Positions 3,319-44,685 of a stretch of DNA of 64,000 nt are shown here, piece by piece. Made by a program: the position numbers and the translations under genes. Source of the DNA: an uncultured Clostridia bacterium (GTDB lineage: Bacteria; Bacillota; Clostridia; Peptostreptococcales; Anaerovoracaceae); NCBI GenBank assembly GCA_934255135.1, contig CAKQMV010000008.1, forward strand, positions 1 to 64,000, read 5' to 3'. Below the pieces are notes generated by a model. It did not search any database and had not been told where the DNA came from. It worked only from the letters and a program-made list of their open reading frames with translations. Numbering within the stretch: position 1 is the stretch's first letter; each line of letters starts with the position of its first letter.

Positions 3319-4089
3319 ATGAATAATGACAAGCTTGTTATAGGTGGACACGAATTTGATTCAAGATTCATTCTAGGTTCGGGTAAGTACTCGATGAAGC
3401 TGATTGAGTCAGCTATTAAGGATGCGGGCGCTGAGATTATTACGCTTGCAGTAAGAAGAGCTAACACTAAGGATGAGGAGAATATTCTCGACTACATTCC
3501 TGAGGGCGTTACACTTCTTCCTAACACATCAGGTGCTAGAAATGCAGACGAGGCAGTAAGAATTGCGCGTCTTGCAAGAGAGCTTGGATGCGGTGATTTT
3601 GTAAAGGTTGAGATTATGAGAGATGCGAAGTATCTTCTCCCTGACAACCAGGAGACTATCAAGGCAACAGAGATTCTCGCTAACGAGGGTTTTGTGGTAA
3701 TGCCTTACATGTATCCGGATCTTAACGCTGCAAGAGATATGGCTAATGCAGGTGCTGCTACAATTATGCCGCTTGCTTCACCAATCGGTTCAAACAAGGG
3801 TCTTGCAACTAAGGCGTTTATCCAGATTCTGATCGATGAGATTGATCTTCCAATCATCGTCGATGCCGGAATCGGCAAGCCTTCACAGGCGTGCGAAGCA
3901 ATGGAGATGGGTGCAGCTGCAATCATGGCTAACACTGCTCTTGCAACTGCAGGCGACCTTCCAATGATGGCTCAGGCATTTCGTCAGGCTATCGAGGCAG
4001 GACGTAAGGCTTATCTTTCAGGACTCGGTCGTGTGCTCACAAGAGGTGCTTCAGCATCAGATCCTCTTACAGGCTTCCTAAGAGACTAG
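3319..4089 (+). CDS. thiG: Thiazole synthase ThiG
   Basis: 256-aa protein with a ThiG-like N-terminus ([19 protein letters not shown]) and a TIM-barrel-like composition. Confidence 0.85.
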
Positions 4090-28100: not shown

Positions 28101-28457
28101 ATGAGCGTCATTATTGAATACGGCGAGGATGAGAAGCTGCAGCATGAGCACGAGCATGAACATAATCATGAACATAAACACAAGCACTCACACGAGCATT
28201 CGCCTGAGGAGAAGAAGAAGCAGCTTAACAGAATAGCGAGAGCAATCGGTCATCTTAAGGCTGTGCAGGGCATGATTGAACGCGATGAGGACTGCTCAGA
28301 TATTCTTATTCAGCTTTCTGCTGTAAGATCTGCGATTAACAACCTCGGCAAGGTTATCATCGACGAGCATCTCACACACTGCATCTATCATGCGATAGAA
28401 GAGGGCGATGATACGACGGTTAAGGAGTTCCAGGAAGCAATAAGGAAATTCATATAA
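28101..28457 (+). CDS. CsoR/RcnR-family metal-sensing transcriptional repressor with a His-rich N-terminal extension
   Basis: Helical C-terminal core with candidate ligands Cys (DEDCSD), His (IDEH) and Cys (THC), giving a C-H-C fingerprint. The N-terminal tail HEHEHEHNHEHKHKHSHEH has 9 His in 20 aa. Confidence 0.75.
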   Translation: MSVIIEYGEDEKLQHEHEHEHNHEHKHKHSHEHSPEEKKKQLNRIARAIGHLKAVQGMIERDEDCSDILIQLSAVRSAINNLGKVIIDEHLTHCIYHAIEEGDDTTVKEFQEAIRKFI

Positions 28458-28544: not shown

Positions 28545-28573
28545 TTGACTATAGAAGCATAAGAACCTACAAT
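28545..28573 (+). promoter_or_regulatory. Promoter (TTGACT, 17 nt, TACAAT) driving the nfl-hyp operon leader
   Basis: The sequence reads ttgactatagaagcataagaacctacaat. Confidence 0.5.
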
Positions 28574-28579
28574 ATAGGT

Positions 28580-28730
28580 ATCTGATACGAAACGTAACAC
28601 TTGAGTTGAAGATACGCCATGCAATATAGCTTAAAGGATGTCGGTGAACCGGCCAGAGGCTGCTTTACCAATCGTCCGCTACGATATGTAATACAAGAGG
28701 CAGTATCTTCAATTGCGAAGATACTGTTTT
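28580..28730 (+). ncRNA. Roughly 150-nt 5' leader ending in a strong intrinsic terminator. Candidate riboswitch or attenuator of unknown class.
   Basis: A structured region (ggatgtcggtgaaccggccagaggctgc…cgtccgc) is followed by cagtatcttc-aattgc-gaagatactg and a T6 run (28690-28730). This lies 50 nt before the TTG start of the first operon gene. Confidence 0.4.
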
Positions 28731-28778
28731 TTATTTTGTTATATAGAAGAGATTTTGTTATATAGAGGAGGTCATCCC

Positions 28779-29027
28779 TTGAACGGAAATAGAATTGCGA
28801 TAATCGGAATAATAATCGAGAAGAGCGAATCGGTTGAGAAGGTTAACGCTCTTTTGCACGACTACAGTGATGTAATTGTTGGAAGAATGGGTGTTCCCTG
28901 CAAGGATAGGGGAGTCAGCATTATAAGCGTGGCTCTCGATGCAACACAGGATTCAATCAATACGCTTGCGGGAAAGCTTGGTCGAATCGATGGTGTTTCA
29001 AGCAAGGCGCTATGCGTGTCGAAGTAG
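28779..29027 (+). CDS. TM1266-like small regulator (the family called putative iron-only hydrogenase system regulator, with an ACT/NikR-C-like fold)
   Basis: 82-aa ORF from TTG at 28779 with a perfect GGAGG 7 nt upstream (LNGNRIAIIGIIIEK…VIVGRMGVP…ISVALD). The six-frame ORF from 28713 has no RBS. Confidence 0.5.
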   Translation: MNGNRIAIIGIIIEKSESVEKVNALLHDYSDVIVGRMGVPCKDRGVSIISVALDATQDSINTLAGKLGRIDGVSSKALCVSK

Positions 29028-29039
29028 TGGAGGAGACAG

Positions 29040-29786
29040 ATGAGAAGGATAGCAATATACGGCAAGGGCGGTATAGGCAAGTCAACAATCTGCTCTAATC
29101 TTGCATCAGCAATGGCTGCGGACGGATTTAAGGTAATGCAGATCGGCTGCGACCCGAAGGCAGATTCAACAGCACTTCACAGGAAGGGGGTTAAGCTTCC
29201 TACAGTTCTTGACACAATGAGAGCGAAGGGAAGTGACTGGGGCCTTGATGAGGTTGTACATGTAAGCGATGATGGAGTTTTCTGCATCGAAGCTGGTGGA
29301 CCGGTTCCTGGACTTGGCTGTGCCGGCAGAGGAATCATCACAGCACTTGAGAAGCTTGAAGAGAAAGGCCTGTATGAGAAGTATGAGCCTGATGTGATTC
29401 TATACGATGTTCTCGGAGACGTTGTGTGCGGAGGCTTCAGTATGCCAATGAGATCAGGCTATGCAGATACTGTATATGTTGTGACCTCAGGTGAGAACAT
29501 GTCAATCTATGCGGCGGCTAACATTGCGATGGCTATAAGCAACTTCAGAGGTAGAGGATATGCGAAGCTTGGAGGTCTTATCCTTAACAGAAGAGATGTC
29601 AGAAACGAAGAGGATAAGGTAAGAGAGCTTGCAGCAGACCTTAAGACAGAGATTATTTCAGATATCCCAAGGTCATCTGATATCCAGGATGCGGAGGATG
29701 CCGGCGAGACTATCGTAAGACTGATGCCAGGCTCTGAGGTATCAGAGATTATTAAGAAGACTTCACGCAGAATCCTTTCTGAATAG
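29040..29786 (+). CDS. NifH/BchL/CfbC-family nitrogenase Fe-protein-like ATPase (copy 1)
   Basis: Walker A (GKGGIGKST), cluster cysteines (GLGCAGRG and VVCGGFSMPMR), and NifH-like length and pattern. Confidence 0.85.
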   Translation: MRRIAIYGKGGIGKSTICSNLASAMAADGFKVMQIGCDPKADSTALHRKGVKLPTVLDTMRAKGSDWGLDEVVHVSDDGVFCIEAGGPVPGLGCAGRGIITALEKLEEKGLYEKYEPDVILYDVLGDVVCGGFSMPMRSGYADTVYVVTSGENMSIYAAANIAMAISNFRGRGYAKLGGLILNRRDVRNEEDKVRELAADLKTEIISDIPRSSDIQDAEDAGETIVRLMPGSEVSEIIKKTSRRILSE

Positions 29787-29854
29787 CAGGATAACAGGAC
29801 AACAGAACAACAACCATTAAACATTAAACAGTTTAGTAACAGAGGCTAATCAGA

Positions 29855-32380
29855 ATGAAGGATATGATTAATACAGAATCATTAAGAATAGAAGATACGA
29901 CTTTCCCAGCTCCATGGAAGAGTCAGCTGGAGTTCAGCTCTCCAGCGAGAGGAACGTGGAACATCGTTCACACGGGAATGCTTATTCCGGAAAGCCACCA
30001 GATTTTTGTCTGCGCGAAGGGCTGCCTCAGAGGTGTAGTTCTTACGGCTGCCGAGATGGGCGAGATGGGAAGATACTCGGCACTTGAGATCAGAGAAGAG
30101 AATGTTCTTAACGGCGATATGGAGACAATGATGATAGACGGCGTTACAGATATCATCGAGAAGCTGCCGGTAAGACCTCGTGCTATAGAGCTTTTTATAA
30201 GTTGTCAGCATTTCTTCTTAGCATATGATCAGAAGCTTGTATTCAGAACTCTTAAAGAGAAGTTTCCGGATATAAGCTTTGTGGACTGCTACATGATTCC
30301 AACTCTTCGTAAGAGCGGAATTACACCGGATCAGAGGATGAGAGTTCAGATGTACAGAATGCTCGAGAAGGGACATATGTCACCTTCGAAGATAAACCAC
30401 ATCGGCTCGAATCACAGGATCAGAAGCAGCTCGGAGATATATGCTTTTGCCCGTAGAAACGGATACATTTTAAGATCCATTCACGACTGTGAGAGCTTCG
30501 ATGAGTACCTTGAGATGGCAGATGCGTGCTTTAACATCGTGACTGAGCCGCTTGCACTTAAGGCTGCAGAGGATATGGAAGCAAGACTCGGTATTCCTTA
30601 CGCATATGTGCCTAACGTGTTCAGATTCTCAGATATCGAGGAGGCTTACAGGAAGCTTTCTCTTGTAACCGGCGATCTTGCACCATACAGAATGCATGCT
30701 CAGGTTGAGATTGACAAGACTAAGAAACTTATCGGTGACGCTGAGATCGTGCTTGATTACACATTTACATTTAGAACGCTGAACCTGGCTAGATTCCTTG
30801 TCGAAAAGGGCTTCAACGTGACCGATATTTACATCGACAGCTTCCTGCCTGAAGATGAGGATGACTGGAAGCACCTTAAAGAGAACAGACCTGGCATAAT
30901 GATTCACCCGACGAACAGACCTTCGATGAGATTTGAGAAGGCCGGAAGAACTGATGCGATTGCACTCGGACAGAAGGCGGCTGAATTTGCGGGAACAGAT
31001 CATTTTGTGAATATTGCTGAAGGTGGCGGACTTTTCGGCTTTGCTGGAGTAGCGGAGCTTATGGAGCTTATGCGAGATGCATATATAAATGAGAAGGACA
31101 GACGAGAGGTCATTCAGAAGAAGGGCTTTAATCAGAGAAGTCTTCTAGATGAATCGGAGTGCCTATGCTCATCGGAGCCTCGAATCAGCAGTCTTACCTC
31201 AACAGGAATCAGAAGCTCTGCGAGCCTTATACCGACATATTCATCGGACGAATTCGGTGCATGCTCATCGCTTTATGAGCTCGGCGGAATGGTAGTAATG
31301 CACGATGCATCGGGTTGCAATTCAACTTATACAACTCATGACGAGCCAAGATGGTACGACCACCAGAGCATGATATATATATCGGCAATTTCTGAGATGG
31401 AAGCTATCATGGGAGACGACGATAAGCTGATCAAGGACATGACAGATGCGACAGAGGAGCTTCATCCAAGGTTTGCGGCAATCGTCGGAGCACCGATACC
31501 TTACATGACAGGAATCGACCTCGATGCGATTTCAGAAATCCTTAAATCAAAGCTTGAAATTCCGGTTTACGGCATCCACGCCAACGGAATGAATGATTAT
31601 ACGAAGGGAATAGAGATGGCCCTTGAGGCACTGACAGACGACCTCACGGAGGCACCGAAGGAAAATTCAGGCGCACACGACAGGGTCAGAGTCAACCTCC
31701 TTGGAATCACGCCACTTGATTACGCAAATCCATCGAATATGGATGAGCTTTATAAGTGGCTTTCCGAAAACGGCATGATCAAGCACTCAAGCTTCACGAT
31801 GGATTCATCAATCGAAGAGATCAAAGATGCTGCGAATGCTGATGTGAACCTGGTTCTGTCATCGGGAGGCCTTAAGACTGCGAAGAAGTTCAAGCGCCTT
31901 TACGGAATTCCATATGTGATAGGAGCACCTTTGGGCCGTGGATATGCGACGGAGCTTGCGAAGAATCTTAAAGACGCAGCTTCGGGCCAAAAACCTGGTT
32001 CAGCGACATGTGAGCGTCCCGCTTCGGCCGATGTTTTAATCATCGGAGAGGCTGTAACATCAGTTTCGCTCGCAAGAGCACTCGAGCTTGACCTTGGAAT
32101 AAGAGCAAGCGTTGCAGCAACAGTAAGCTGCAGCGATGAAATATTAAGAGCGGGCGACAGATTTACACCATGCGAGGATGCTGTGATAGAGGCTTTAGAT
32201 GAGCTTAAACCAGGAGCTGTAATTGCAGATCCTTTCTACATGGCAATCGTGAATGAGAAGACATTATTTATACCACTTCCTCACGAGGCCTTCTCAGGAA
32301 GAATTTTTGATAAGGAAGCACCGTGTCTGGTTAACACAGACCTTGATGCACTGCTTCAGGTAGGAGAGATAAATGCTTAA
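29855..32380 (+). CDS. Nitrogenase component-1-like oxidoreductase: a single-chain fusion of NifD/E-like (N-terminal half) and NifK/N-like (C-terminal half) domains
   Basis: 841 aa. The N-terminal half is homologous to ORF 33115-34413 ([15 protein letters not shown]…[13 protein letters not shown] vs [15 protein letters not shown]…[13 protein letters not shown]). The C-terminal half is homologous to ORF 34414-35466 ([18 protein letters not shown] vs CDAGGCTGNVCGFDEPRW). Confidence 0.7.
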
Positions 32381-33122
32381 ATTAGCGGTATATGGTAAAG
32401 GCGGAATAGGAAAATCAACAACAACGGCAAATCTTGCAGCGGCTTTTGCAAGCCTCGGCAAGAAGGTAATCCAGATAGGTTGCGATCCTAAGGCTGACTC
32501 GACAATGAACCTTCTTTCAGGAACTCCTGTTCAGTCAGTAATGGATTACATGAGAATTAACGATTGCGAGCCGGAGAGACTCGACGAGATTGTAAAGGAA
32601 GGCTACGGCGGAATCGTCTGCATCGAGACAGGCGGACCTACACCGGGACTTGGCTGCGCAGGAAGGGGAATCATAACAACATTCTCACTTCTTGAAGACC
32701 TCGAGCTCTTTGAGACTTACAAGCCTGACGTTGTGCTATACGACGTACTTGGAGACGTTGTGTGCGGAGGCTTTGCAGCACCTATAAGAGAGGGTTACGC
32801 AGAAGAGATTCTTATCGTAACATCAGGCGAGAAAATGGCGCTTTATGCGGCAAACAATATCGCCAAGGCTGTCGAGAATTTCGAGGACAGAGGATATGCG
32901 AGCGTTCGCGGAGTCGTTATGAACAGACGTAACGTTGAGAACGAGGAAGAGAAGGTCAAGGCCTGGGCTGATGAGGCGGGCTTCCCCGTTATCGCAGACA
33001 TTCCAAGAAGCAACGATATTATTAAATACGAAGATCAGGGCATGACAGTTATCGAAGGCGATAGAAGCCTTGAAGTGAGTCAATGCTACATAAAACTTGC
33101 AAAGAGGTTACTTAATGAATAA
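32373..33122 (+). CDS. NifH/BchL/CfbC-family nitrogenase Fe-protein-like ATPase (copy 2)
   Basis: [17 protein letters not shown] and [12 protein letters not shown] motifs. ATG overlaps the upstream stop (ATGCTTAA). Confidence 0.85.
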
Positions 33123-34413
33123 ACAGGATGCATTTTATATAACAGCAAGAGATCTTGCAGACGGAGGAATCGAAGGCGTTCCGTCAGAGCTTAAGTCGCA
33201 GGATCACCTAATCTACAGCTCACCTGCAGCGCTGAGCTTTAACTCACCTGGAGCACAGGGCTTCGGTGTCAAAAGAGCGGGTCTTGCAGTCCCAGGCTCC
33301 GTGATGCTGCTGGTTGCTCCGGCGTGCTGCGGACGTAACACAACTATGCTTGCAGAGCTCGGTTCATATGCTGACAGATTCTACTATCTTCTTCAGGATG
33401 ATACAGATATCATCACTGGAAGACACCTTAACAGAATCTCACAGGCAGTTAAGGATGTGGCAGATTTCCATGAAGAGTCGACTGGAACAAGACCTAACGT
33501 GGTAATGATCTGTATCACATGCGTAGACGCACTTCTCGGAACAGATATGGACAGAGTCTGCAGAAAGGCTTCAGAGTTTGCAGGACTTCCTGTTCTTCCA
33601 TGCTATATGTATGCGCTTGAAAGAGAGGGAAGAGTTCCTCCGATGACAGCGGTAAGAAGAACAGTGTACCAGCTCCTCGAGCCAAGGGAGAAGAAGAACA
33701 CAACAGTAAATCTTCTCGGACACTTCGCACCGCTTAACGATGATTCAGAAATCTACGAGCTTCTGAGAGGCATCGGAGTTAAGAAGATTAACGAGATATC
33801 AAGATGCGAGGATTTCGATGAGTATCTTGGAATGGCTGAGGCGAACTTCAGTATTATCCTGAACCCAGAATCAAGACTTGCTGCAGAGGATATTGCCAAA
33901 AGACTTGAGATTCCATCAGTCGAGCTTACAAGAATGTACAGAATCGACAAGATCAGAAAGCAGTATCAGCTCTTTGCGGGAGCTATCGGAGCTAAGATAG
34001 ATGACTCTAAGTTCTACGAGGAAGCGGCGGCGAAGGTAGAAGCTTTTGCCCGTGAGAACAAGGGTAAGAGGGTTGCAATCGGAGAGTGCATGAATGCGGA
34101 TTCATTCGAGCTTGCACTTGCAATGACTGAGTACGGACTTACAGTAACTGAGATTTACGGCACAGTTTCGGCTGAGAGAATGCCATATATCAAGATGCTT
34201 GCAGAACTTAGTCCTGAGACAAGAATCTACACCAATCTCGAGCCGTCAATGCTTTATTACGATTCAAGCGAGCTTCCATGCGACTTTACCATCGGAATTG
34301 ATGCCGGATATTATCATCCGGATGCGCCTAATGTTCCTTGGAATCTCGAGGTTCAGCCATGGGGCTACAACGGTCTTATCCGTCTGATTGAAGAAATAGA
34401 AGGAGTGCTCTAG
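33115..34413 (+). CDS. Nitrogenase component-1-like subunit (NifD/NifE/BchN-like)
   Basis: About 432 aa, paralogous to the N-terminal half of the 841-aa fusion. Start at MNKQDAFY (AGAGGT RBS) overlaps the nifH-like stop. Confidence 0.7.
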
Positions 34414-35466
34414 ATGAAGGGTTTACTAAGAGTTATGTCACCGTTTGCGCCTGACCAGTCAGGTGCGGCTTCGGTGTTTTACGATATGAATGCGATTACA
34501 GTCATATGCGATGCCGGCGGATGTACCGGAAACGTGTGTGGCTTCGATGAGCCGAGATGGCAGAAGAATGCGAGACCGATTTTCAGTGCGGGACTTCGTG
34601 ATATGGATGCGATTCTCGGAAGAGATGACAGACTGGTCGACAAGCTTAAGCTTGTTTCAGATAAGAGCGATGCGGATTTTGCTGCTATAATCGGAACTCC
34701 CGTGCCGGCAGTTATTGCAACTGACTTTAAGGCTCTCAAAAAAATGGCATCAAAGCGTTGCGGCATCCCAGTTGTAACGTGTGAGTGCACAGGAACTAAT
34801 CTCTACGACAAGGGTGAGGAGATGGCTTACCTCGAGCTTATGAAGACGTTCACAAGGGACATGGATGTGTGCGAGGGAAGAGTCGGAGTCCTCGGTGCGA
34901 CACCACTTAACTTCAGCGATATTGAAGCTGACAAGCTTATCAGAAAACACTATATGGAAGAAGGCTTTAGCGAGGTGCTTGTCTACGGCATGGGCGACGG
35001 ACTTGATTCGGTAAGAATGGCGGCGTCATGCGAGATGAATATCGTAGTTTCAGCTTCGGGACTTGCTCCGGCAAGATGGCTTAAGAAAAATTATGGGACA
35101 CCTTACAGAGTTGAGTGCCCTTTTGCAGGCGAGGCTGCAGCTAAGGCGGCAGGAGTGCTTAAGCATTCAAAGGTTCTTATCGTACATGAGCAGGTTGCTG
35201 CAAACAGCCTTAGAGATGCGATGGAGGACTGCGACGTTACAGTAGCGACCTTCTTCACACTCGATAAGAACATTGCAAATGAAGGCGATGTGCTGGTGGA
35301 GACAGAGGCTCAGTTTATAGAGCTTGTCGAAAATGGAGGCTACGATGCAGTTATCTGCGACGAGCTTCTTAGAAGAGCCGTAAAGGATGGAACCTACGGC
35401 ATTTGGATTAACCGAAGACATTTTGCAGTCTCCGGAAACCTGGAGGAAGGATTATGCGAACTCTAA
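34414..35466 (+). CDS. Nitrogenase component-1-like subunit (NifK/NifN/BchB-like)
   Basis: 350 aa, paralogous to the C-terminal half of the fusion. Cys-rich CDAGGCTGNVCG and VVTCECTG segments. Confidence 0.7.
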   Translation: MKGLLRVMSPFAPDQSGAASVFYDMNAITVICDAGGCTGNVCGFDEPRWQKNARPIFSAGLRDMDAILGRDDRLVDKLKLVSDKSDADFAAIIGTPVPAVIATDFKALKKMASKRCGIPVVTCECTGTNLYDKGEEMAYLELMKTFTRDMDVCEGRVGVLGATPLNFSDIEADKLIRKHYMEEGFSEVLVYGMGDGLDSVRMAASCEMNIVVSASGLAPARWLKKNYGTPYRVECPFAGEAAAKAAGVLKHSKVLIVHEQVAANSLRDAMEDCDVTVATFFTLDKNIANEGDVLVETEAQFIELVENGGYDAVICDELLRRAVKDGTYGIWINRRHFAVSGNLEEGLCEL

Positions 35467-37760
35467 GAATCTGCGTGTACGGAATAGTGCAGGGTGTAGG
35501 CTTCAGACCTTTTATTTCAAGACTTGCTGACAGACACGGAATACTCGGAAGCGTGGCGAACAGAGGTTCATATGTTGAGATTTTTGCCTGCGGAGAGGAC
35601 GATGAGCTCGATGCTTTTAAGGCTGGAATTGAAGCTGAGGCTCCACCAAGATCTGCAATTCTTAAAGTAACAAGCAGAGATATATCGGATAAGGCTCCTG
35701 CTTATCATGATTTTCAGATAATAGAGAGCACTGCGGAGAGAGGCGACATCTTCGTATCACCGGATATTGCGACATGTCCGGAATGCAGAAGAGAGCTTTT
35801 TGACAGTGGCAACAGAAGATATATGCATCCGTTCATTAACTGTACGGCATGCGGACCTAGACTTACGATTCTCGATGCGATGCCTTATGACAGGGAACGT
35901 ACGAGCATGAAGGAATTTCCAATGTGTCCGGAGTGCGAGTTTGAATATACTCATCCGGAGACGAGAAGATATGACGCGCAGCCCGTGTGCTGTAACGACT
36001 GCGGACCAGAGGTCTATATAGTCGGAACTGATATCAGAGGAAGAGATGCGATTACACGCGCAAGACAGGCCGTTATTGATGGTGAGATTGTTGCGATAAA
36101 AGGAATCGGAGGCTTTCACCTCTGCTGCGATGCGACTTCGGAGGAGGCTGTAGCAAGACTCAGAAGGCTTAAGAGAAGACCTGCTAAGCCATTTGCAATT
36201 ATGGCTAGAAGTCTTGAAGCGGTGGATAGAATCTGCAGCATTCCATCAGATTCTGTAAGAGAGCTTCTCGATGGACACAGCAAGCCGATTGTTCTTCTTG
36301 AGAGAATAAATGAAGGCGTGCTCGCACCATCGGTTGCACCTGATAATCCGAATGTTGGTGTTATGCTTCCATACGCACCGGTTCAGATGCTGATGTTTGA
36401 CTATAACGACGATCTTGACATCGGAACAGATTATTTTGTAATGACGAGCGGAAATGTATCTGGAGCACCGATCTGCAGAACAGATGAGGATGCAGTAGCT
36501 GAGCTTTCGGATTTCTGCGATGTGATATTAAGTCACAACAGAACGATAAGGCTTCGTGCGGACGACTCTGTTGTGGATGTATATAAGGATGAGCCTTACA
36601 TGATCAGACGTTCAAGAGGCTTCGCTCCTCTGCCTGTTATGACAGAAGAGGAGATTGAGGCATCAGTTCTCGCTGTTGGAGGAGAGCTTAAGAACACATT
36701 CTGCATCGGAAAGGATCAGCTGCTCTATGAATCATCGTTCGTCGGCGATATGGCTGATGTAAGAACGGTAAGAGCTCTGAATGAGTCAATAGACAGAATG
36801 GCAGAGCTTCTTGAGACAGACCCTGAGGTGGTGGTGTGCGACCTTCATCCTAAATACAATACGACCGAGGTTGCTGAAAGATATGCAGATAAGCATAATA
36901 TTCCTCTTATCAGACTTCAGCATCATTATGCTCACATTCTGTCGTGCATGGCGGAAAATGATTATACAGACGAGGTCATCGGCCTGTCTATGGACGGAAC
37001 AGGCTATGGAACAGACGGAACTATCTGGGGTGGCGAAGTTCTCCTGACAAGAAGAGACGGCTTCGAGAGACTTTCTCATATCGATCCGTTTATGCAGGCC
37101 GGCGGTGACCTCTCTGCAAAGGAGGGCTGGAGAATTGCAGCTTCTATGATAGGTTCGCTTTTCGGTGATGATGCAGAGGTAATCTCTGAGAATCTCGGAA
37201 TCTGCAGCGAATCAGAGTTTAAGCTTATTCGCACAATGACAGAGCGAGGAATTAACTCTGTGAAGTCGACGAGTGCGGGAAGACTCTTTGATGCAGTAAG
37301 TGCGATCCTTGGAGTAAGAAGAGCGTCAAGCTTCGAGGGTGAAGCGGCTACAACACTGCAGTTTAGAGCAATTGAAGCTAAGGGCGAATCAAAGTACCCA
37401 GGCCAAAACCGTGGTGACGGTTCGATAGCTTCCGGTGAGATTGTTAAATGGCTCGTAGGAGAGATGCTTCAGGCAACCGATAAAGATCAGACGCAGCGGG
37501 AGCTTGCGTGGGCCTTCCACGAAGCTTTTGCCCGTGAGATGGCGGACTCGGCACTTTACTGGTCGGAGAAGACAGGAATAAAGACAATAGCACTAAGCGG
37601 CGGTGTTATGCAGAATACTCTGCTGCTTGGAATGCTTGAAGAATACCTTGAGGAGAGAGAACTTAAGGTTATAAGACATCATATGATTCCACCGAATGAT
37701 GGCGGAATCGCGCTTGGGCAGGCGCTATATGCCCGTTGGGAGGTAGGAAAATGTGTGTAG
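35454..37760 (+). CDS. hypF: Carbamoyltransferase HypF ([NiFe]-hydrogenase maturation: acylphosphatase, 2 Zn fingers, YrdC and Kae1-like domains)
   Basis: 768 aa. Acylphosphatase start (ICVYGIVQGVGFRPF), two CxxC x18 CxxC fingers, YrdC-like and C-terminal Kae1-like regions. Confidence 0.85.
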   Translation: MRTLRICVYGIVQGVGFRPFISRLADRHGILGSVANRGSYVEIFACGEDDELDAFKAGIEAEAPPRSAILKVTSRDISDKAPAYHDFQIIESTAERGDIFVSPDIATCPECRRELFDSGNRRYMHPFINCTACGPRLTILDAMPYDRERTSMKEFPMCPECEFEYTHPETRRYDAQPVCCNDCGPEVYIVGTDIRGRDAITRARQAVIDGEIVAIKGIGGFHLCCDATSEEAVARLRRLKRRPAKPFAIMARSLEAVDRICSIPSDSVRELLDGHSKPIVLLERINEGVLAPSVAPDNPNVGVMLPYAPVQMLMFDYNDDLDIGTDYFVMTSGNVSGAPICRTDEDAVAELSDFCDVILSHNRTIRLRADDSVVDVYKDEPYMIRRSRGFAPLPVMTEEEIEASVLAVGGELKNTFCIGKDQLLYESSFVGDMADVRTVRALNESIDRMAELLETDPEVVVCDLHPKYNTTEVAERYADKHNIPLIRLQHHYAHILSCMAENDYTDEVIGLSMDGTGYGTDGTIWGGEVLLTRRDGFERLSHIDPFMQAGGDLSAKEGWRIAASMIGSLFGDDAEVISENLGICSESEFKLIRTMTERGINSVKSTSAGRLFDAVSAILGVRRASSFEGEAATTLQFRAIEAKGESKYPGQNRGDGSIASGEIVKWLVGEMLQATDKDQTQRELAWAFHEAFAREMADSALYWSEKTGIKTIALSGGVMQNTLLLGMLEEYLEERELKVIRHHMIPPNDGGIALGQALYARWEVGKCV

Positions 37761-37957
37761 GATTAGCGGCTAAGGTTGTTGGTATCAAGGATGGTGCGGC
37801 AGTTGTTGATGCATCAGGTGCAAGACGTGAGGTATCAGCTGAGATGATCGAGAATCTTGAACCGGGCGATTACGTAATGGTTCATGCAGGAATTGCAATT
37901 GCGAAGATTACTTCTGACGATACAGAAGAGACAGATGAACTGATGGAGATGCTCTAA
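37751..37957 (+). CDS. hypC: Hydrogenase assembly chaperone HypC/HupF
   Basis: Begins MCVGLAAKV (the essential Cys2). About 68 aa. ATG at 37751 with a GGGAGG RBS. Confidence 0.8.
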   Translation: MCVGLAAKVVGIKDGAAVVDASGARREVSAEMIENLEPGDYVMVHAGIAIAKITSDDTEETDELMEML

Positions 37958-39015
37958 TGGAAGAAAGAAAGCTTACAGCGAGAGAAATAATTGAGCAGTA
38001 CGACGGCCCGAAGATCAGAATTATGGAGGTGTGCGGAACGCATACACACGAAATCTTCAAGCTTGGAATCCGTAATCTGCTCCCGGAGAATATAGAACTT
38101 ATTTCGGGACCCGGATGTCCGGTGTGCGTAACTCCTTGCGGCTTTATCGACATGGCGTGCGAGCTTGCACTCGATAAGGGCTGTACAGTATGCACCTTCG
38201 GAGACCTTATAAGAGTTCCGGGAACCGAGATGAGCCTTGCAGATGCGAGAACTAAGGGTGCTGAGATTAAGATTGTGTATACAGCACTCGATGCGCTTGA
38301 TTTTGCAAGAAATAATCCTGATAAGGACGTTGTGTTCCTCTCTGTTGGATTTGAGACCACAACTCCTGCGGCCTGCCTTACTGTAAAGAAGGCTAAGGAA
38401 GAGGGAATCACCAACTACTCGATTCTTACAGCAAACAAGACTATGCCTAACGCGTACAACGCTCTTAAGGGAAGTGCAGATGCCTTTCTTTACCCTGGTC
38501 ACGTAAATGCGATCACAGGTGAAGAGGATTGCGAGAGACTCGCTTACGAAGAGGGAATCTCAGGCGTTATCGCAGGTTTTACGGCCAAAGAGCTTCTTAC
38601 TGCAATCGCGGTAATAATCCGCAGACTCGAGAAGGGTGAGCCGTTCTTCGTGAATTGCTATCCAAGAGTTGTAACAAGGGAAGGAAGCAAGCCTGCAAAG
38701 AAGCTTATAGACGAGACAATGGAGCTTACAGATTCAACATGGAGAGGACTTGGAGTTATCCCTAAATCAGGTCTTAAGCTCCGCGAGGAATACAAGGATT
38801 ACGATGCATCATACAAGTATGATGTGCCTTACACAGACGGCAAGCCTAATCCGGGATGCCGCTGCGGAGACGTGCTTCAGGGAAAGTGCAAGCCTTGTGA
38901 CTGTTCGCTTTTCGGCAAGATGTGCACACCACTTCACCCGGTTGGAGCTTGTATGGTAAGTAACGAAGGAAGCTGCTCAGCGTTCTATCAGTATGGAGGA
39001 ATAATCAATGGATAA
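37957..39015 (+). CDS. hypD: Hydrogenase formation protein HypD
   Basis: CGTHTHEI (CGxH), GPGCPVC and C-terminal Cys motifs. TAATG coupling to hypC. Confidence 0.85.
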   Translation: MEERKLTAREIIEQYDGPKIRIMEVCGTHTHEIFKLGIRNLLPENIELISGPGCPVCVTPCGFIDMACELALDKGCTVCTFGDLIRVPGTEMSLADARTKGAEIKIVYTALDALDFARNNPDKDVVFLSVGFETTTPAACLTVKKAKEEGITNYSILTANKTMPNAYNALKGSADAFLYPGHVNAITGEEDCERLAYEEGISGVIAGFTAKELLTAIAVIIRRLEKGEPFFVNCYPRVVTREGSKPAKKLIDETMELTDSTWRGLGVIPKSGLKLREEYKDYDASYKYDVPYTDGKPNPGCRCGDVLQGKCKPCDCSLFGKMCTPLHPVGACMVSNEGSCSAFYQYGGIING

Positions 39016-40012
39016 TGTAGTAAAGCTAGCTCATGGTGGCGGCGGAAAGCTGACATCTGAGCTTATCGAGAAGGTATTTAAGAAGCATTTTGCAAACGAG
39101 GCATTTACAGCAGACGATGCTGCAGTTTTAAACATCGGAAGTGGAAACATCGCAATGACTACAGACGGATTTATCGTATCACCGTTTGAGTTCCCTGGCG
39201 GAAACATAGGAAAGCTTTCAATCTGCGGAACTGTTAACGACCTTGCCTGCATGGGAGCAAAGCCTCTTTATATGACATGTGCTTTTGTCATCGAGGAGGG
39301 CTTCCCAATGGACAAGCTTGAGGAGATTGCTGCTCTCATGGAGAAGACTGCTGCAGAGGTTGGCGTTAAGATCGTTGCCGGTGACACTAAGGTTGCAGGT
39401 AAGGGTCAGGTAGACAATGTGTTTATCACAACTACAGGAATCGGCGTTCTGACTGAGGGTGTTAAGACTTCAGGTGCATTTGCAGAGAAGGGTGACAAAA
39501 TCATCGTTACTGGCGATGTTGGACGTCACGGCTGCACAATCCTTCTTGAAAGAGAGGACCTTGGAATCGAGGCTGATATCACGAGCGACTGTGCACCGTT
39601 GTGGAACACTGTAAAGTCTGTAATGGATGCGGCTCCTGACGTTCATGTAATCAGAGATGCTACAAGGGGCGGAGTTGGAACAGTTCTTTACGAAATCGCC
39701 GGCGAGAGTAACGTCGGAATCAGAATTGAGTCAGCAGATATTCCTGTTGATCCTGCTGTAGCAGGCGTATGCGGAATGCTCGGTCTTGATCCGCTCTACC
39801 TTGCCAACGAGGGAACAATGGTTATTATTGCACCTGCTTGTAGTGCTGATGCAGTGCTTACTGCACTTCATAATGATAAGTACGGAAAGAATGCAGCTAT
39901 TATTGGAGAGGTTACTGACGAGATGGCAGGAAGCGTAGTTCTCAGGACTGAGATCGGAACAGAGACAATGCTTCCACAGCCAGGCGGAGAGCTTCTTCCA
40001 AGAATCTGCTAA
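39008..40012 (+). CDS. hypE: Hydrogenase maturation factor HypE (AIR-synthase-like carbamoyl dehydratase)
   Basis: PurM-like fold motifs and the diagnostic C-terminal …PRIC. Confidence 0.85.
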   Translation: MDNVVKLAHGGGGKLTSELIEKVFKKHFANEAFTADDAAVLNIGSGNIAMTTDGFIVSPFEFPGGNIGKLSICGTVNDLACMGAKPLYMTCAFVIEEGFPMDKLEEIAALMEKTAAEVGVKIVAGDTKVAGKGQVDNVFITTTGIGVLTEGVKTSGAFAEKGDKIIVTGDVGRHGCTILLEREDLGIEADITSDCAPLWNTVKSVMDAAPDVHVIRDATRGGVGTVLYEIAGESNVGIRIESADIPVDPAVAGVCGMLGLDPLYLANEGTMVIIAPACSADAVLTALHNDKYGKNAAIIGEVTDEMAGSVVLRTEIGTETMLPQPGGELLPRIC

Positions 40013-40036
40013 TTCCCAGATAATGGAGTAATAGAT

Positions 40037-41092
40037 ATGAATAATCTTGAGAAGCTAAAAGAATTAGTGCTCAAGCTTAAAGACGAAAAGAGACTCGATA
40101 AGGATGAGTGGATACTCCTTATCGAGTCACAAAGTCCTGAGCTTATGGAATTTGTCTCTGAACACGCAAGAAATGTAAGAGAAGCTCACTACGGCAAGGA
40201 TGTCTATGTGAGAGGTCTTATCGAGATAAGCAATTATTGTAAGAATGACTGCTACTACTGCGGAATCAGAAAGAGCAATCTTAATGCGCACAGGTACAGA
40301 CTCTCTAAGGAGACGATACTTGACTGCTGCCGTGAGGGCCATGAGCTTGGCTACAGGACTTTTGTCATGCAGGGCGGCGAGGACATGCACTATAGCGATG
40401 ACCTCGTCTGCGATATAGTTTCATCCATCAAGGCAGAATTTCCAGACTCTGCAGTGACTCTTTCAATAGGAGAGAGGTCACGCGAGAGCTATGCAAGATT
40501 TAAGAAAGCAGGTGCTGACAGATATCTTCTTAGACATGAGACTGCATGCGAGGCTCATTATAGAAAACTTCACCCAGATGAGCTTACTCTTGCGAACAGG
40601 AAAAGATGCCTGTATGATTTAAAGGAACTCGGCTTCCAGGTGGGAGCCGGTTTTATGGTGGGCGCGCCATACCAGACCGTAGATAATCTTGCAGAGGATA
40701 TGATTTTCCTTAAGGAGCTTAGTCCTCATATGGTCGGCATCGGCCCGTTTATTCCACACCACGACACACCGTTTAAAGATATGCCGGCGGGAAGTGCTGA
40801 GCAGACGCTTTATTTTCTCAGCCTTACAAGACTGATGCTTCCATCAGTTCTGCTTCCGGCGACAACTGCACTTGGTACAATCTCTGACAATGGAAGAGAG
40901 CTTGGAATGCTTGCCGGTGCAAACGTTGTTATGCCCAACCTTTCGCCAGCGGAGGTGAGAGGCGATTATCTTCTTTATGATAACAAACTGTGCACCGGAG
41001 ATGAGGCTGCGCAGAATCTTGCTAATCTTAATAAGAGAATGGAGTCGGTCGGCTTTAATATTTCAATGACTCGTGGTGACTGGAAAGAATAA
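40037..41092 (+). CDS. hydE: [FeFe]-hydrogenase H-cluster radical SAM maturase HydE-like
   Basis: 351 aa. CKNDCYYCGIR matches the HydE-type CxxxCxYCGxR motif rather than BioB CPEDCxYC. BioB/HydE-like length. Confidence 0.65.
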   Translation: MNNLEKLKELVLKLKDEKRLDKDEWILLIESQSPELMEFVSEHARNVREAHYGKDVYVRGLIEISNYCKNDCYYCGIRKSNLNAHRYRLSKETILDCCREGHELGYRTFVMQGGEDMHYSDDLVCDIVSSIKAEFPDSAVTLSIGERSRESYARFKKAGADRYLLRHETACEAHYRKLHPDELTLANRKRCLYDLKELGFQVGAGFMVGAPYQTVDNLAEDMIFLKELSPHMVGIGPFIPHHDTPFKDMPAGSAEQTLYFLSLTRLMLPSVLLPATTALGTISDNGRELGMLAGANVVMPNLSPAEVRGDYLLYDNKLCTGDEAAQNLANLNKRMESVGFNISMTRGDWKE

Positions 41093-41116: not shown

Positions 41117-42856
41117 ATGAAATTCAAGAGAAATAATCTTTCTAAAATGCTAAGCTACTATAAGCCTTACATGGGACTGTTCCTTGCTGATATGTTCTTT
41201 GCGACAATCAGCTCCGCGATAGCACTGTGTATTCCGCTTGTAGTAAGATACGTTACTTCGACGCTCGTTTACATGAAGCCGGAGGTTATTCTTGCACAGA
41301 CTTTAAAGCTTGCTATTCTGATGCTTGTGCTTGTGCTTGTTGATTTCGGTTCAAGATACTTTATCGGTAACTACGGACATGTGATGGGTGCGAAGATAGA
41401 ATATAACATGCGAGCAGAGATCTTCGACCATATGCAGAAGCTGTCATTCAGGTTCTACGATGATGCCAAGGTCGGACAGCTGATGAGCAGAGTCACAACA
41501 GACCTGTTTGATATCACTGAGCTTCTCCACCACGGTCCTGAGAACATTCTTCTTTCACTTCTCAAGATCTGCGGAGCTCTTGCAATCCTGTTTAGCATCA
41601 ATCCGAAGCTTACATTAGCGGCATTTATTATTCTGCCGTTTATGTTCATATATGCATACGTTCTTAACAAGAAGATGAGAAGGGCATTTAAGCTTAACAG
41701 AGTTAAGATCGCCGAAATCAACGGACAGATCGAGGACAACTTCTCAGGAATCAGAGTGGTAAAGTCATTTGCCAATGAGGATGTTGAGAATGGCAAGTTC
41801 AAGGTAGGAAATGATGGCTTCCTGTCATCAAAGAAGAACAATTACAGATATATGGGCCTTTTCCAGGCCGGAATTCAGGCGTTCAATACGCTGATTACAG
41901 TGTGCGTTATCATAATCGGCTGCGTTCTTATTGCAAGGGACAACCTTAATGTCAGCGATTTCGTAACGTTCCTTCTTTATATTAACGTATTCACTGATCC
42001 TATCAAGACTCTTGTAGATTTTACAGAGATGTTTCAGAACGGATACACAGGCTTCGAAAGATTCAGAGAGATTATGGATATCGAGCCAGATATTCAGGAC
42101 GATCCTGATGCAGAGGAGCTTGGAGATGTAGACGGTAACATAGTATTTGATGATGTATCGTTCTCATATAACGATAATTCTGGCGAGGTTCTTTCGAACG
42201 TAAATCTCGATATCAGACCGGGACAGTATATCGCACTTGTCGGTTCATCCGGTGCAGGTAAGACTACGCTTTGTTCACTTATTCCTCGTTTCTACGATGT
42301 GGATTCAGGAAGAATTCTGATTGACGGACACGACATCAGACATCTCAAGCAGAGAAGCCTCCGTAACAAGATCGGAATCGTTCAGCAGGACGTGTATCTT
42401 TTTGCCGGAACAATCTATGATAACATCGCATACGGTAAGCCGGGTGCGACAAGAGAAGAGGTCATCGAGGCTGCAAAGAATGCGAATGCGCATGACTTTA
42501 TAATGTCACTTGAGGACGGCTACGATACAGATATCGGACAGAGAGGAATCAAGCTCTCAGGAGGTCAGAAGCAGAGACTTTCGATTGCTAGAGTATTCCT
42601 TAAGAATCCACCTATCCTTATCTTTGATGAGGCAACATCGGCACTCGATAACGAGAGCGAGAGAATCGTTCAGGAGTCACTTGAGAAGCTCGCGGCTAAT
42701 AGAACAACTATCGTAATCGCCCACAGACTTTCAACTATCAGAAATGCTGAGAAGATTCTCGTTCTCACAGAGGATGGAATCGCAGAAAGCGGTACGCACG
42801 AGGAACTCCTTCACAAGGGCGGCGTGTACGAGCAGCTTTACAGAGGAACTATCTAA
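41117..42856 (+). CDS. ABC transporter ATP-binding/permease protein (type I exporter, MsbA/LmrA-like half-transporter)
   Basis: Six TM helices followed by an NBD with GSSGAGKTT, LSGGQKQRLSIAR and ILIFDEATSALD. Confidence 0.8.
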   Translation: MKFKRNNLSKMLSYYKPYMGLFLADMFFATISSAIALCIPLVVRYVTSTLVYMKPEVILAQTLKLAILMLVLVLVDFGSRYFIGNYGHVMGAKIEYNMRAEIFDHMQKLSFRFYDDAKVGQLMSRVTTDLFDITELLHHGPENILLSLLKICGALAILFSINPKLTLAAFIILPFMFIYAYVLNKKMRRAFKLNRVKIAEINGQIEDNFSGIRVVKSFANEDVENGKFKVGNDGFLSSKKNNYRYMGLFQAGIQAFNTLITVCVIIIGCVLIARDNLNVSDFVTFLLYINVFTDPIKTLVDFTEMFQNGYTGFERFREIMDIEPDIQDDPDAEELGDVDGNIVFDDVSFSYNDNSGEVLSNVNLDIRPGQYIALVGSSGAGKTTLCSLIPRFYDVDSGRILIDGHDIRHLKQRSLRNKIGIVQQDVYLFAGTIYDNIAYGKPGATREEVIEAAKNANAHDFIMSLEDGYDTDIGQRGIKLSGGQKQRLSIARVFLKNPPILIFDEATSALDNESERIVQESLEKLAANRTTIVIAHRLSTIRNAEKILVLTEDGIAESGTHEELLHKGGVYEQLYRGTI

Positions 42857-42871
42857 AGAGGTAAATAATTG

Positions 42872-43780
42872 ATGGATAACATGCTTTATGTTGCACCGCT
42901 TGAGGGTCTGACTATGGCGGTGTGGAGAAAAGCGCATAGAGATGTGTTCGGCGGAGCGGATAAATATTTCGCTCCGTTTATTTCTCCAAATCAGAATATG
43001 TCGCTTACGGAGAAGGAGAGAAGAGATATCACGCAGGATGAGACAGATCTCGTTCCGCAGGTTCTAGTGTCGAATGTAGAACATTTCGCGTGGGCTTGTG
43101 AGACTCTTTTAGAGCTTGGGTATACGGAGCTTAATCTGAACTTCGGCTGCCCGAGTGGAACTGTCACTGCCAAAAGAAAAGGTTCAGGCCTTTTAAGAAC
43201 CCCGGATGCTCTCGATGAGTTTCTCGATGGAGCTTTTGAGGTGTCCCGTGGCATGACAATTTCTGTAAAGACAAGAATAGGTTATGAGGACTCGGACAGA
43301 TGGCCCGAGATTCTTAGCATTTATGAGAAATATCCGATAAGCGAGCTTATCATTCATCCGAGAATCCGTAAGGATTTCTATAAGGGCGAGCCAGATAGAG
43401 AGCTGTTCCTTGAGGCGATGAACGAAAGCCCGCTTAAGCTTGTATATAATGGAGATATTGCATCGCCGGAAGATCCGGCTCTTTCCTATGGCTGTGATGT
43501 GATGGTTGGAAGAGGGCTTATTGCAAGACCATCGCTATTTCGTGAAATAAGAGGAGGAGAGCCTGCGAGCATGGATGAACTTAAGCGCTTTCACGATATG
43601 ATTCTAGAAGGCTATATGGAATATATGCCGGGCGAGCTCCCGCTTCTACATAGAATGAAGGAGTTCTGGCACTATTTTTCGGAAAGCTTTGATGCTGATC
43701 CGAAGCTGGTCAGGAAAATCCTTAAGACTAAGAAGGTTTCAGAATATATGAACGCGGTGAATTCGATTTTTGCCGGATAG
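42872..43780 (+). CDS. dus: tRNA-dihydrouridine synthase family protein
   Basis: Dus-like motifs (LNFGCPSGTV…KTRIGYED). Start choice ATG 42872 (RBS AAGAGGT); the six-frame ORF starts at 42869 (TTG). Confidence 0.7.
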   Translation: MDNMLYVAPLEGLTMAVWRKAHRDVFGGADKYFAPFISPNQNMSLTEKERRDITQDETDLVPQVLVSNVEHFAWACETLLELGYTELNLNFGCPSGTVTAKRKGSGLLRTPDALDEFLDGAFEVSRGMTISVKTRIGYEDSDRWPEILSIYEKYPISELIIHPRIRKDFYKGEPDRELFLEAMNESPLKLVYNGDIASPEDPALSYGCDVMVGRGLIARPSLFREIRGGEPASMDELKRFHDMILEGYMEYMPGELPLLHRMKEFWHYFSESFDADPKLVRKILKTKKVSEYMNAVNSIFAG

Positions 43781-43803
43781 AATAATTGACGGAGAGAGAA
43801 AAC

Positions 43804-44685
43804 ATGATTCAGGATATTGGAAAAGGAAGATTTGATAATCAGTATAAGAATGTAAAAGCGACAGAGGAGGATATGGCTGTCGTTTTCGCCGGTACATGCA
43901 AGAGGGACGATTCAATTCTTGCCGGCGTTGAATGGGCAGATGGCGTAGCTAAGACTGCATACTTTCCGACTGTAGGCGAGCTTTCAGAATGTGGATACAC
44001 AGCTGATGACTTTATTTATCTCTTTTCAATCGACGATCAGAGATATTTCATGCTCGACAGATACAGCGAAACAATCGATGGAGTAGAGAGACTTGCAGAT
44101 TATGAGTTTACTGCAATTAGAACGCTTACTAAGGTTGAGCCGATGGAGCTTGGCATGGCAGCGATTACTGCCTATCATCTCTTCGACTGGTACAGAATCA
44201 ATCAGTTCTGCGGACGCTGCGGCGGCAGGATGGTTCACGACTCTAAGGAACGTGCCAAGCGATGCACATGTGGCTGCGGTAATATGGTATTCCCTAAGAT
44301 CTGCCCTGCGTGCATAATTGCAGTTCGTAATGGTGATACAGTAATCACTTCAAGATATGCAGGAAGAGCTTACAGAGGTCGTGCGCTGATTGCTGGATTC
44401 TGCGAGATTGGTGAGACTGCGGAGGAGACAGTTGCAAGAGAGGTAATGGAGGAGATTGGACTTAAGGTCAAGAACATTACTTATTACGGAAGTCAGCCAT
44501 GGGGAGTTGAGTCAGATCTTCTTCTCGGTTATTATTGCGATGTTGATGGCTCGACAGAGATTCACATCGATGAGGAGGAGCTTGCGATTGCGGAGTGGAC
44601 ACATCGTGAAGACCTCGACCCTGAAGCAAATATGAGAACGCTTACCGGTACGATGCTTAATGCATTCAGAACCGGCGAAATTTAA
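43804..44685 (+). CDS. nudC: NAD+ diphosphatase NudC (NUDIX hydrolase with zinc ribbon)
   Basis: Zinc ribbon (CGRCGGRM…CTCGCG) and a Nudix box (GFCEIGETAEETVAREVMEEIGL). ATG at 43804 after a GGAGAG RBS; the six-frame ORF extends from 43786 (TTG). Confidence 0.7.
   Translation: MIQDIGKGRFDNQYKNVKATEEDMAVVFAGTCKRDDSILAGVEWADGVAKTAYFPTVGELSECGYTADDFIYLFSIDDQRYFMLDRYSETIDGVERLADYEFTAIRTLTKVEPMELGMAAITAYHLFDWYRINQFCGRCGGRMVHDSKERAKRCTCGCGNMVFPKICPACIIAVRNGDTVITSRYAGRAYRGRALIAGFCEIGETAEETVAREVMEEIGLKVKNITYYGSQPWGVESDLLLGYYCDVDGSTEIHIDEEELAIAEWTHREDLDPEANMRTLTGTMLNAFRTGEI

Follow-up and report, generated by a model that had tools for sequence, protein, structure and literature searches.

Why should a bacterium keep two sets of nitrogenase-like genes in one operon with genes for hydrogenase maturation? 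The question is raised by a 64,000-nucleotide stretch of DNA (hereafter the window; contig CAKQMV010000008.1, positions 1 to 64,000, of assembly GCA_934255135.1) from an uncultured Clostridia bacterium of the Anaerovoracaceae. Eleven tightly packed forward-strand genes occupy positions 28779-41092, in the order TM1266, NifH-like 1, a fused D+K-like gene, NifH-like 2, a D/E-like gene, a K/N-like gene, HypF, HypC, HypD, HypE and HydE (Table 1). Below, the first nitrogenase-like (Nfl) set, NifH1-D1-K1, is called Nfl1 and the second, NifH2-D2-K2, Nfl2. The system to which these genes belong is widespread, is transcribed in Ruminococcus albus 7 and is uncharacterized, although the linkage was remarked on in 2012. 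An earlier note on this DNA, made from the sequence alone, had taken the operon for a single fused system. Our survey shows that two modules have been brought together, and that their packaging is a conserved functional linkage rather than the product of chance.

Gene content of the operon

The eleven-gene layout given in the earlier note is borne out by the listing of open reading frames (ORFs) and by scans against Pfam and NCBIfam. Gaps within the run range from -26 to +68 nt, and catalytic motifs are preserved in all of the operon families examined. The gene identities stand overall, but the D-like proteins are nearest to NifE and the label NifD was wrong. The dense packing also stands, although not the boundary drawn at HydE: spacing just as close (gaps of 5-24 nt) runs on past HydE through genes for an MsbA-like ABC exporter, a Dus-family protein and a NUDIX/NADH-pyrophosphatase-like protein (41117-44685), so that 41092 cannot be taken as the definite 3' end of the operon. 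The MsbA-like exporter follows HydE in only two of the loci surveyed below, L001 and L002. At the 5' end, direct reading of the TM1266 start gives a TTG codon behind the ribosome-binding site GAGGAGG.

Table 1. Features of the operon and its surroundings (positions are those of the window)
Feature	Position	Strand	Evidence and remarks
CsoR/RcnR/FrmR-family metal-sensing repressor	28101-28457		His-rich N-terminus HEHEHEHNHEHKHKHSHEH; directly upstream of the operon
Sigma-70-like promoter (tentative), TTGACT-17 nt-TACAAT	28545-28573	+	Consensus scan, 10/12 matches; kept in L001
5' leader, ~200 nt	28575-28778	+	Terminator-like hairpin 28695-28732, then T-run; minimum free energy z-score -3.4
TM1266-family small regulator/ligand-binding protein, 82 aa	28779-29027	+	TIGR03959 112 bits (cutoff 60.8); PF21699
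NifH-like ATPase 1 (Nfl1 reductase)	29040-29786	+	PF00142 285 bits
Fused NflD1-NflK1, 841 aa, NifEN-like	29855-32380	+	PF00148, two stretches
NifH-like ATPase 2 (Nfl2 reductase)	32373-33122	+	PF00142 307 bits
NflD2, NifE-like	33097-34413	+	PF00148; alternative ATG start at 33115
NflK2, NifN-like	34414-35466	+	PF00148
HypF carbamoyltransferase	35454-37760	+	Five domains: acylphosphatase, two HypF zinc fingers, YrdC, Kae1-like
HypC chaperone, 68 aa, N-terminus MC	37751-37957	+	TIGR00074 60.9 bits (cutoff 48)
HypD scaffold	37957-39015	+	PF01924 451 bits
HypE	39008-40012	+	TIGR02124 423 bits (cutoff 251.6)
HydE radical-SAM maturase	40037-41092	+	TIGR03956 570 bits (cutoff 254.6)
Group B [FeFe] hydrogenase, candidate client	47480-48937	-	TIGR04105 508.6 bits (cutoff 450)

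Conservation and two-module structure

We searched one genome per species for relatives of the fused D1K1 protein, which are encoded in at least 592 species. The 80 best loci (1.44 Mb) were then labelled with the window proteins and with HydF of isolate NK3A20, a true HydF (TIGR03918, 496 bits). The co-occurrence described in the earlier note was found again, but in place of an undifferentiated fusion the loci resolve into module A, comprising TM1266, HydE, NifH1-D1-K1 and HydF, and module B, which runs NifH2-D2-K2-HypF-HypC-HypD-HypE. D1 and K1, fused in the window, are separate genes in most relatives.

Forty-two loci are well flanked, with at least 8 kb on both sides. Hyp genes are present in 31 of these and HydE, HydF or TM1266 in 31, with both groups present in 24; the four that have neither are distant homologues in Sutterella, Syntrophomonas, Synergistales and Intestinibacter bartlettii. 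Over the 80 labelled loci, TM1266 is present in 45 and HydF in 27. HypF follows NflK2 directly in 40 species, with a median gap near 3 nt according to the ORF caller, and follows a fused D2K2 in two more. HydE lies immediately 5' of the NifH1/D1 genes in 25 species, Nfl1 is flanked by HydE and HydF in at least 13 loci, and module A precedes module B in 32 loci and follows it in 17. At least one locus, L070, includes a gene of the aspartate ammonia-lyase (AspA) family, a known companion of canonical hyd operons, that passes the curated cutoff.

The carriers include Anaerovoracaceae, which are the closest relatives of the window, Lachnospiraceae (among them NK3A20) and Coriobacteriaceae, as well as R. 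albus, Ruminococcus sp. YE71, Sarcina sp. DSM 11001 and Clostridium muellerianum. The linkage seen in the window is thus conserved in dozens of species from several families. Coincidental packing of unrelated operons in one lineage, with which the run of close spacing into the exporter, Dus and NUDIX genes of the window would agree, is extremely improbable: the same partnerships recur in Anaerovoracaceae, Lachnospiraceae, Ruminococcus, Clostridium, Coriobacteriaceae and elsewhere, whichever module comes first, and the synteny survey rules out chance adjacency. Between the window and L001, its closest relative, module B is better conserved than D1K1, the identities being 90% for NifH2, 84% for D2 and 91% for HypE compared with 68% for D1K1.

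Several variants of gene structure were encountered. D2K2 fusions of 877-1016 aa occur, and HypF is extended to about 925-1010 aa in several loci; L003 (NK3A20), L016 and L019 are among these variants. One Clostridiaceae protein (P0118) is a NifH-NflD fusion. In L051, on a 1.4-Mb contig of a Mogibacterium metagenome-assembled genome (MAG), module B is on the strand opposite to Nfl1, and its HypF and HypD are broken up over several ORFs, an indication of frameshifts or pseudogenes.

The nitrogenase-like proteins

Both NifH-like proteins carry the P-loop, the two cluster cysteines (equivalent to Cys97 and Cys132) and the VCGGF motif of PF00142 Fe-protein ATPases. NifH-like 1 and 2 score 303 and 310, respectively, against a NifH cutoff of 394; the corresponding values are 296 and 302 for CfbC (cutoff 402), 185 and 212 for BchL (cutoff 345) and 176 and 195 for BchX (cutoff 331).

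The D- and K-like proteins also fall below the family cutoffs. The NifDK/VnfDK/AnfDK families are represented by a score of 38.6 for TIGR01282 (cutoff 653) and the NifEN scaffolds by scores of 75, 67 and 44 for nifE (TIGR01283; cutoff 505), with the cofactor cysteine missing. The tetrapyrrole reductases score 30 (CfbD; cutoff 268), 40 (BchB; cutoff 490), 18 (BchN; cutoff 420) and 20 (BchY; cutoff 425). As regards the methylthio-alkane and isethionate reductases (NFL Groups IV-C and IV-F), the Mar structure 9fmg was matched only at a profile E value of 1e-5, and no sulfur-salvage or NifB-like gene was found among the scanned ORFs of the cluster. Throughout, NifE and NifD are the top matches; against solved families the best single-sequence E values lie between 1e-5 and 1e-8 and the best profile E value is about 1e-15. 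The earlier note had suspected a new kind of system, and indeed none of the characterized NifDK, NifEN, Bch, Cfb and Mar families fits.

The likeness to the NifH/NifEN pair is nevertheless the closest one, with NifE as the best sequence match, NifEN as the best fold and a dedicated NifH-like ATPase for each set. An AlphaFold (AF2) model of the fused D1K1 protein (pLDDT 78.7, pTM 0.80) has as its best fold match in the PDB a naturally fused NifEN (entry 9i0g; E = 5e-23), after which come other NifEN, NifDK, BchNB and methylthio-alkane reductase structures. Profile alignments place Cys78 and Cys142 of D2 and Cys117 of D1 on the interface-cluster cysteines of NifE, so that equivalents of NifE Cys62 and Cys124 are retained. 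The differences are that identity is only 13-19% throughout, that the cysteine of the L-cluster or iron-molybdenum cofactor (FeMoco), Cys250 in NifE and Cys275 in NifD, is replaced by Leu in D2 and by Glu in D1, and that no NifB was found among the scanned ORFs.

The two sets are mutually nearest relatives (identities of 54% for H1 and H2, 26% for D1 and D2 with E = 1e-31, and 29% for K1 and K2 with E = 1e-44) and are therefore likely to be an old paralogous pair with its own branch of the superfamily. Judged by these comparisons, Nfl1 and Nfl2 appear to form a nitrogenase-like branch outside the characterized families. Invariant Cys and His residues are His39, His48, Cys53, Cys57, Cys117, His119 and Cys145 in D1, Cys77/78, Cys139/142 and Cys155 in D2, and Cys37 and Cys42 in K2, while the K1 family has one invariant motif with Cys/His.

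These residues bear on the idea that the Nfl proteins are the end users of the pathway. HypFCDE, HydE and HydF would then build a new Fe-CO/CN cofactor for NflD1K1, NflD2K2 or both, and the outcome would be an organometallic enzyme of a new kind that the NifH-like proteins reduce at the expense of ATP. One scaffold would seem to be enough, yet two complete H-D-K sets are kept, and all four D and K proteins keep invariant Cys or His residues beyond what an interface [4Fe-4S] cluster needs. The AF2 model has low confidence in the loops that carry them, which would be expected of metal sites, and the proteins lie outside the characterized groups. We nevertheless consider this idea unlikely, since the FeMoco/L-cluster cysteine has been lost from D1 and D2, HydF, TM1266 and AspA are specific companions of [FeFe] maturation, and every carrier checked has [FeFe] hydrogenases.

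Hyp and Hyd proteins and their missing partners

The Hyp proteins of the window are full-length members of their families and carry the key catalytic motifs of a HypCDEF module: Cys2 and the conserved His (VHAG) of HypC, the CGTHTHE and GPGCPVC motifs and C-terminal Cys cluster of HypD, and the C-terminal PRIC motif of HypE. HydE has the CX3CX2C motif and matches the crystallized Thermotoga maritima HydE structures at 290 bits, which suggests that the two enzymes share the same kind of substrate.

A candidate client lies 6.4 kb downstream of the operon on the opposite strand. This group B [FeFe] hydrogenase, the ORF of which extends to 49129 with M65 as the likely start, has intact H-cluster motifs TSCCP, GPCTAKKAE and EGMACSGGC at residues 347, 395 and 503. 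The NK3A20 cluster likewise adjoins a group B hydrogenase.

HydF, HypA, HypB, [NiFe] subunits and a maturation protease are all absent from the 64-kb window. Escherichia coli HypA, HycE, HyaB, HyaA, HycI and HyaD, used as probes, found no match in the window or in 84 loci, so that a complete [NiFe] maturation system is present at none of them; no large or small [NiFe] subunit, maturation protease or HypA occurs in any of the 84. These probe searches agree with the earlier note, which had reported no [NiFe] subunit, HypA or HypB in the window. It had also found no FeMoco genes there, and no NifB-, NifE-, NifN- or NifV-like gene turned up in the Pfam/NCBIfam scans, which covered most of the larger ORFs of the window and not every ORF. 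HypB-like GTPases are confined to two loci without Hyp genes, L077 and L083. Here HypB-like gene pairs (L077:2283-3656 and L083:2427-3812, which match E. coli HypB at E values of 1e-42 to 1e-48) are located a few kilobases upstream of module A, in a Mogibacterium MAG and a Clostridiales MAG.

The lack of HydG and HydF that the earlier note reported is also upheld. HydF has no match in the window, and the sole HydG relative there is a ThiH (4100-5350), which scores 513 bits with TIGR02351 and 170 bits with the HydG model (cutoff 312). We rejected the idea that it might be a cryptic HydG, given its score as ThiH and its place in a thiamine operon behind a thiamine pyrophosphate (TPP) riboswitch. 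This riboswitch (RF00059, 63 bits) is at 2292-2399, and the operon consists of ThiF (2659-3294), an ORF at 3319-4089, ThiH, ThiE, ThiD and ThiC (ending at 8188); the ORF at 3319-4089 was scanned against NCBIfam only and gave no match. In the 1.44 Mb of labelled loci there is no HydG/ThiH-like ORF besides HydE. Of the HydEFG set, the window therefore has HydE alone. That HydE is an orphan, as the earlier note put it, is true of the window but not of its relatives, in which the clusters contain HydF.

Hydrogenases and expression in the carriers

Four isolates that carry the full cluster, R. albus AR67 (L017), Ruminococcus sp. YE71 (L058), Lachnospiraceae G41 (L018) and Sarcina DSM 11001 (L054), are listed with only [FeFe] hydrogenases (Greening 2019; PMC6776011, Table S2). 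In NK3A20 a group B [FeFe] hydrogenase occurs together with a [NiFe] enzyme of group 4e (PMC6776011). The absence of [NiFe] context noted for the window extends to every locus, but some carriers, NK3A20 and the clostridial acetogens, do have a [NiFe] hydrogenase.

R. albus 7 relies on two [FeFe] hydrogenases, and its genes Rumal_0542-0556 comprise a hypothetical gene, HydF, HydE, both Nfl sets and HypFCDE (PMC6776011). The hypothetical gene is short and stands where R. albus AR67 has TM1266. According to the RNA-seq data of the same study, Rumal_0543-0556 are evenly expressed (about 30-125) and Rumal_0542 more strongly (about 500), and the expression of the whole set remains steady in co-culture (PMC6776011). 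The annotation of this genome names HydE and HydF only generically, so that absence by name carries no meaning. A separate nitrogenase component-1 pair is found at Rumal_0520-0523, beside an NMT1/THI5-like binding protein and a permease (PMC6776011, Table S7). Its expression varies about 30-fold across replicates, and it resembles the sulfur-salvage (MAR-like) Nfl proteins, a distinct system.

The acetogens are a second group of informative carriers. Orthologues of NflD2 with 90-96% identity to the C. muellerianum protein are found in C. drakei, C. ragsdalei, C. ljungdahlii, C. autoethanogenum, C. coskatii, C. carboxidivorans and AWRP, and the operon of C. ragsdalei (L085) reads NifH2-D2-K2-HypF-C-D-E-NifH1-D1-K1. 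In a survey of eight acetogens HydG was identifiable in only three, the C. autoethanogenum candidate differing from the earlier annotation (PMC9431212). Transcripts of CLJU_c23060-90 in C. ljungdahlii are described in one paper as showing 'few changes' between growth on CO and on H2.

The same genomes bear on whether the Hyp genes serve a distant [NiFe] hydrogenase, with Nfl2 as an accessory supplier of CO or electrons to HypCD and with HydE and TM1266 as mere neighbours. Each acetogen surveyed has one group 1a [NiFe] hydrogenase (PMC9431212), and the HypF linked to Nfl is the only HypF that these organisms have. In C. drakei and C. scatologenes HypAB is at the [NiFe] locus and HypCDEF occurs only in the Nfl operon; the group 4e enzyme of NK3A20 could be a client of the same sort. 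Against this, five of the eight acetogens have HypCDEF without HypAB, which is present in only three, and a further HypCDE set adjoins the [NiFe] genes of C. carboxidivorans (PMC9431212). Together with the four [FeFe]-only isolates and the 0 of 84 loci with HypA, protease or [NiFe] subunit, these facts lead us to regard [NiFe] service as improbable.

A possible assembly line for the H-cluster

We tentatively favour another reading, in which the operon is a two-module machine that builds CO/CN-ligated iron for maturation of the H-cluster in [FeFe] hydrogenases, although we hold the case for it to be not quite an even one. Gene content, intact motifs, conserved synteny, absence of [NiFe] context at the loci and transcription in R. 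albus are results of the analysis; the client enzyme, the replacement of HydG and every step of the Nfl chemistry are inferred.

On this proposal HypF and HypE would convert carbamoyl phosphate to cyanide and load it on iron held by HypC and HypD. Nfl2, driven by ATP, would give this iron either electrons of very low potential or CO, for example from the reduction of CO2. The cluster therefore also bears on where the CO ligand of Hyp-type maturation comes from under anaerobic conditions. Module A, which consists of HydE, Nfl1 and TM1266 together with HydF and sometimes AspA in the relatives, would turn the iron synthon into a [2Fe] precursor, with Nfl1 serving as an ATP-dependent scaffold or reductase in the manner of NifH with NifEN. 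[FeFe] hydrogenases, the downstream group B enzyme among them, would receive the product. TM1266-type domains may sense a metal or an intermediate.

The proteins of module B, possibly with Nfl1, would do the job of HydG. A route to the H-cluster that is independent of HydG in this way, with cyanide that HypF/HypE draw from carbamoyl phosphate instead of tyrosine, iron on HypCD, two ATP-driven Nfl complexes that provide CO or reducing power and a scaffold, and HydE (with HydF where it occurs) finishing the [2Fe] unit, is conceivable but doubtful. Three observations agree with the replacement of HydG: none of the loci has HydG, four carriers lack [NiFe] hydrogenases, and HydG is a puzzle in the acetogens.

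Several observations weigh against the H-cluster proposal. C. drakei and C. scatologenes, which are reported to have HydG candidates (PMC9431212), also carry the cluster. The group 4e hydrogenase of NK3A20 and the group 1a [NiFe] hydrogenases of the acetogens could be the Hyp client in those organisms. Nfl1 of I. bartlettii and of Sutterella is accompanied by importer genes only, with no Hyd or Hyp gene within 10 kb, and may therefore have a more general role. There is also a mismatch in stoichiometry, as HypCD normally makes Fe(CN)2(CO) whereas the known substrate of HydE is Fe(CO)2(CN)(Cys).

In about 19-25 loci module A is accompanied by genes for an iron-chelate-type ABC importer, which consists of a permease (FecCD), a binding protein (Peripla_BP_2) and an ABC ATPase. 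The best matches of the binding protein are the heme binder IsdE and the catechol-iron binder SstD. The ABC ATPase carries a C-terminal fusion to a TM1266-like domain (for example L070:1310-2404 and L075:7980-9074, with about 17 further loci), and because of this fusion we suggest that TM1266 domains sense a transported metal or a product.

Nfl1 might primarily be a reductase of an imported metal chelate or tetrapyrrole, which could serve to free iron, and might do no more than feed iron to maturation, with Nfl2-Hyp having a separate function. The importer genes flank NifH1-D1-K1 itself; in I. bartlettii all three transporter genes are its only labelled neighbours, while in Sutterella massiliensis the binding protein is the sole importer component recognized next to it. 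Furthermore, the characterized non-sulfur Nfl enzymes (DPOR, COR and CfbCD) all reduce tetrapyrroles (Chem. Rev. review of July 2026). No such importer is present, however, in the window or in many loci with both modules, such as those of R. albus, and in at least 13 loci Nfl1 lies between HydE and HydF. That Nfl1 and Nfl2 are closest paralogues suggests related chemistry and speaks against separate functions. We therefore give this explanation little weight.

Relation to known systems and significance

The linkage is not new, as the earlier note had believed it to be: Dos Santos et al. (2012; PMC3464626) remarked on it in two brief passages and a supplementary figure, without characterizing it. 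Their system, two NifH-E-N-like sets beside hydrogenase maturation genes in gut Firmicutes, is evidently the same as ours, and the cysteine pattern that they gave, with a pair of conserved Cys in the D/E-like protein and a single one in the K/N-like protein, agrees with the present one. The module structure, the link to HydE, HydF and TM1266, the distribution and any test are absent from that account, and here D1K1 is fused (841 aa). We found no follow-up on an Nfl+Hyp+Hyd system in open-access papers and bioRxiv beyond the 2012 remark. The July 2026 Chem. Rev. review of nitrogenase-like (NFL) proteins makes no mention of Hyp or Hyd and ties gene context only to sulfur and tetrapyrrole metabolism.

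Each known pathway accounts for part of the operon. HydE and TM1266 of the window, like HydF of NK3A20 and AspA of L070, pass the family cutoffs of the HydEFG pathway; the differences are that HydG is missing from the window and the 84 loci, that NifH1-D1-K1 is found in neighbouring positions, and that NifH2-D2-K2-HypFCDE adjoins NifH1-D1-K1 in most loci. With the HypABCDEF pathway the window shares HypF, HypC, HypD and HypE, but these share an operon with nitrogenase-like H-D-K genes, and HypA, the endopeptidase and the [NiFe] genes are absent from the loci. The uncharacterized NFL Groups IV-D/E and VI have the same H-D-K architecture and have likewise lost the FeMoco ligands. Of the six P-cluster cysteine positions no more than four are retained, and simple [4Fe-4S] clusters are accordingly predicted. 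Those groups differ in that the review ties them to sulfur and tetrapyrrole contexts only.

Two acknowledged problems are touched by these findings. Firstly, Greening et al. (2024, Cell) consider it probable that [FeFe] hydrogenases can also be matured by another pathway, and the cluster bears on how active [FeFe] hydrogenases arise without the full HydEFG set. Secondly, it bears on the puzzle of gas-fermenting Clostridium acetogens in which HydG and HypAB are missing (PMC9431212). It provides a concrete, testable candidate, and its carriers include genetically tractable industrial acetogens as well as the chief H2-producing bacteria of rumen and gut. Should the HydG-independent route prove true, it would have a wide distribution among the Clostridia of gut and rumen and among industrial acetogens, and the Nif, Hyp and Hyd lineages of metallocofactor assembly would be merged in one pathway. 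The cluster would also give a first function to a large uncharacterized nitrogenase-like branch, in a field where gene context has been of no help in understanding such branches (Chem. Rev. review, 2026). In addition, the NifH-like genes of the cluster, which lie below the NifH cutoff, may have contributed to the counts of putative nifH genes in rumen surveys.

Upstream region

The promoter assignment is tentative because the scan as a whole gave no more sites than did shuffled sequence. The CsoR-like repressor was rejected as a part of the system, since it adjoins the operon only in the window and in L001. A known riboswitch in the leader was also rejected: no Rfam family was found there apart from a chance match (E = 0.36). 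Among the loci, the leader sequence is conserved in L001 alone. Its hairpin ends just 5' of the TM1266 start, and a segment further upstream, GAAGAUAC, repeats the 3' arm of the hairpin. This segment could act as an antiterminator, in which case the leader could be an attenuator or a riboswitch.

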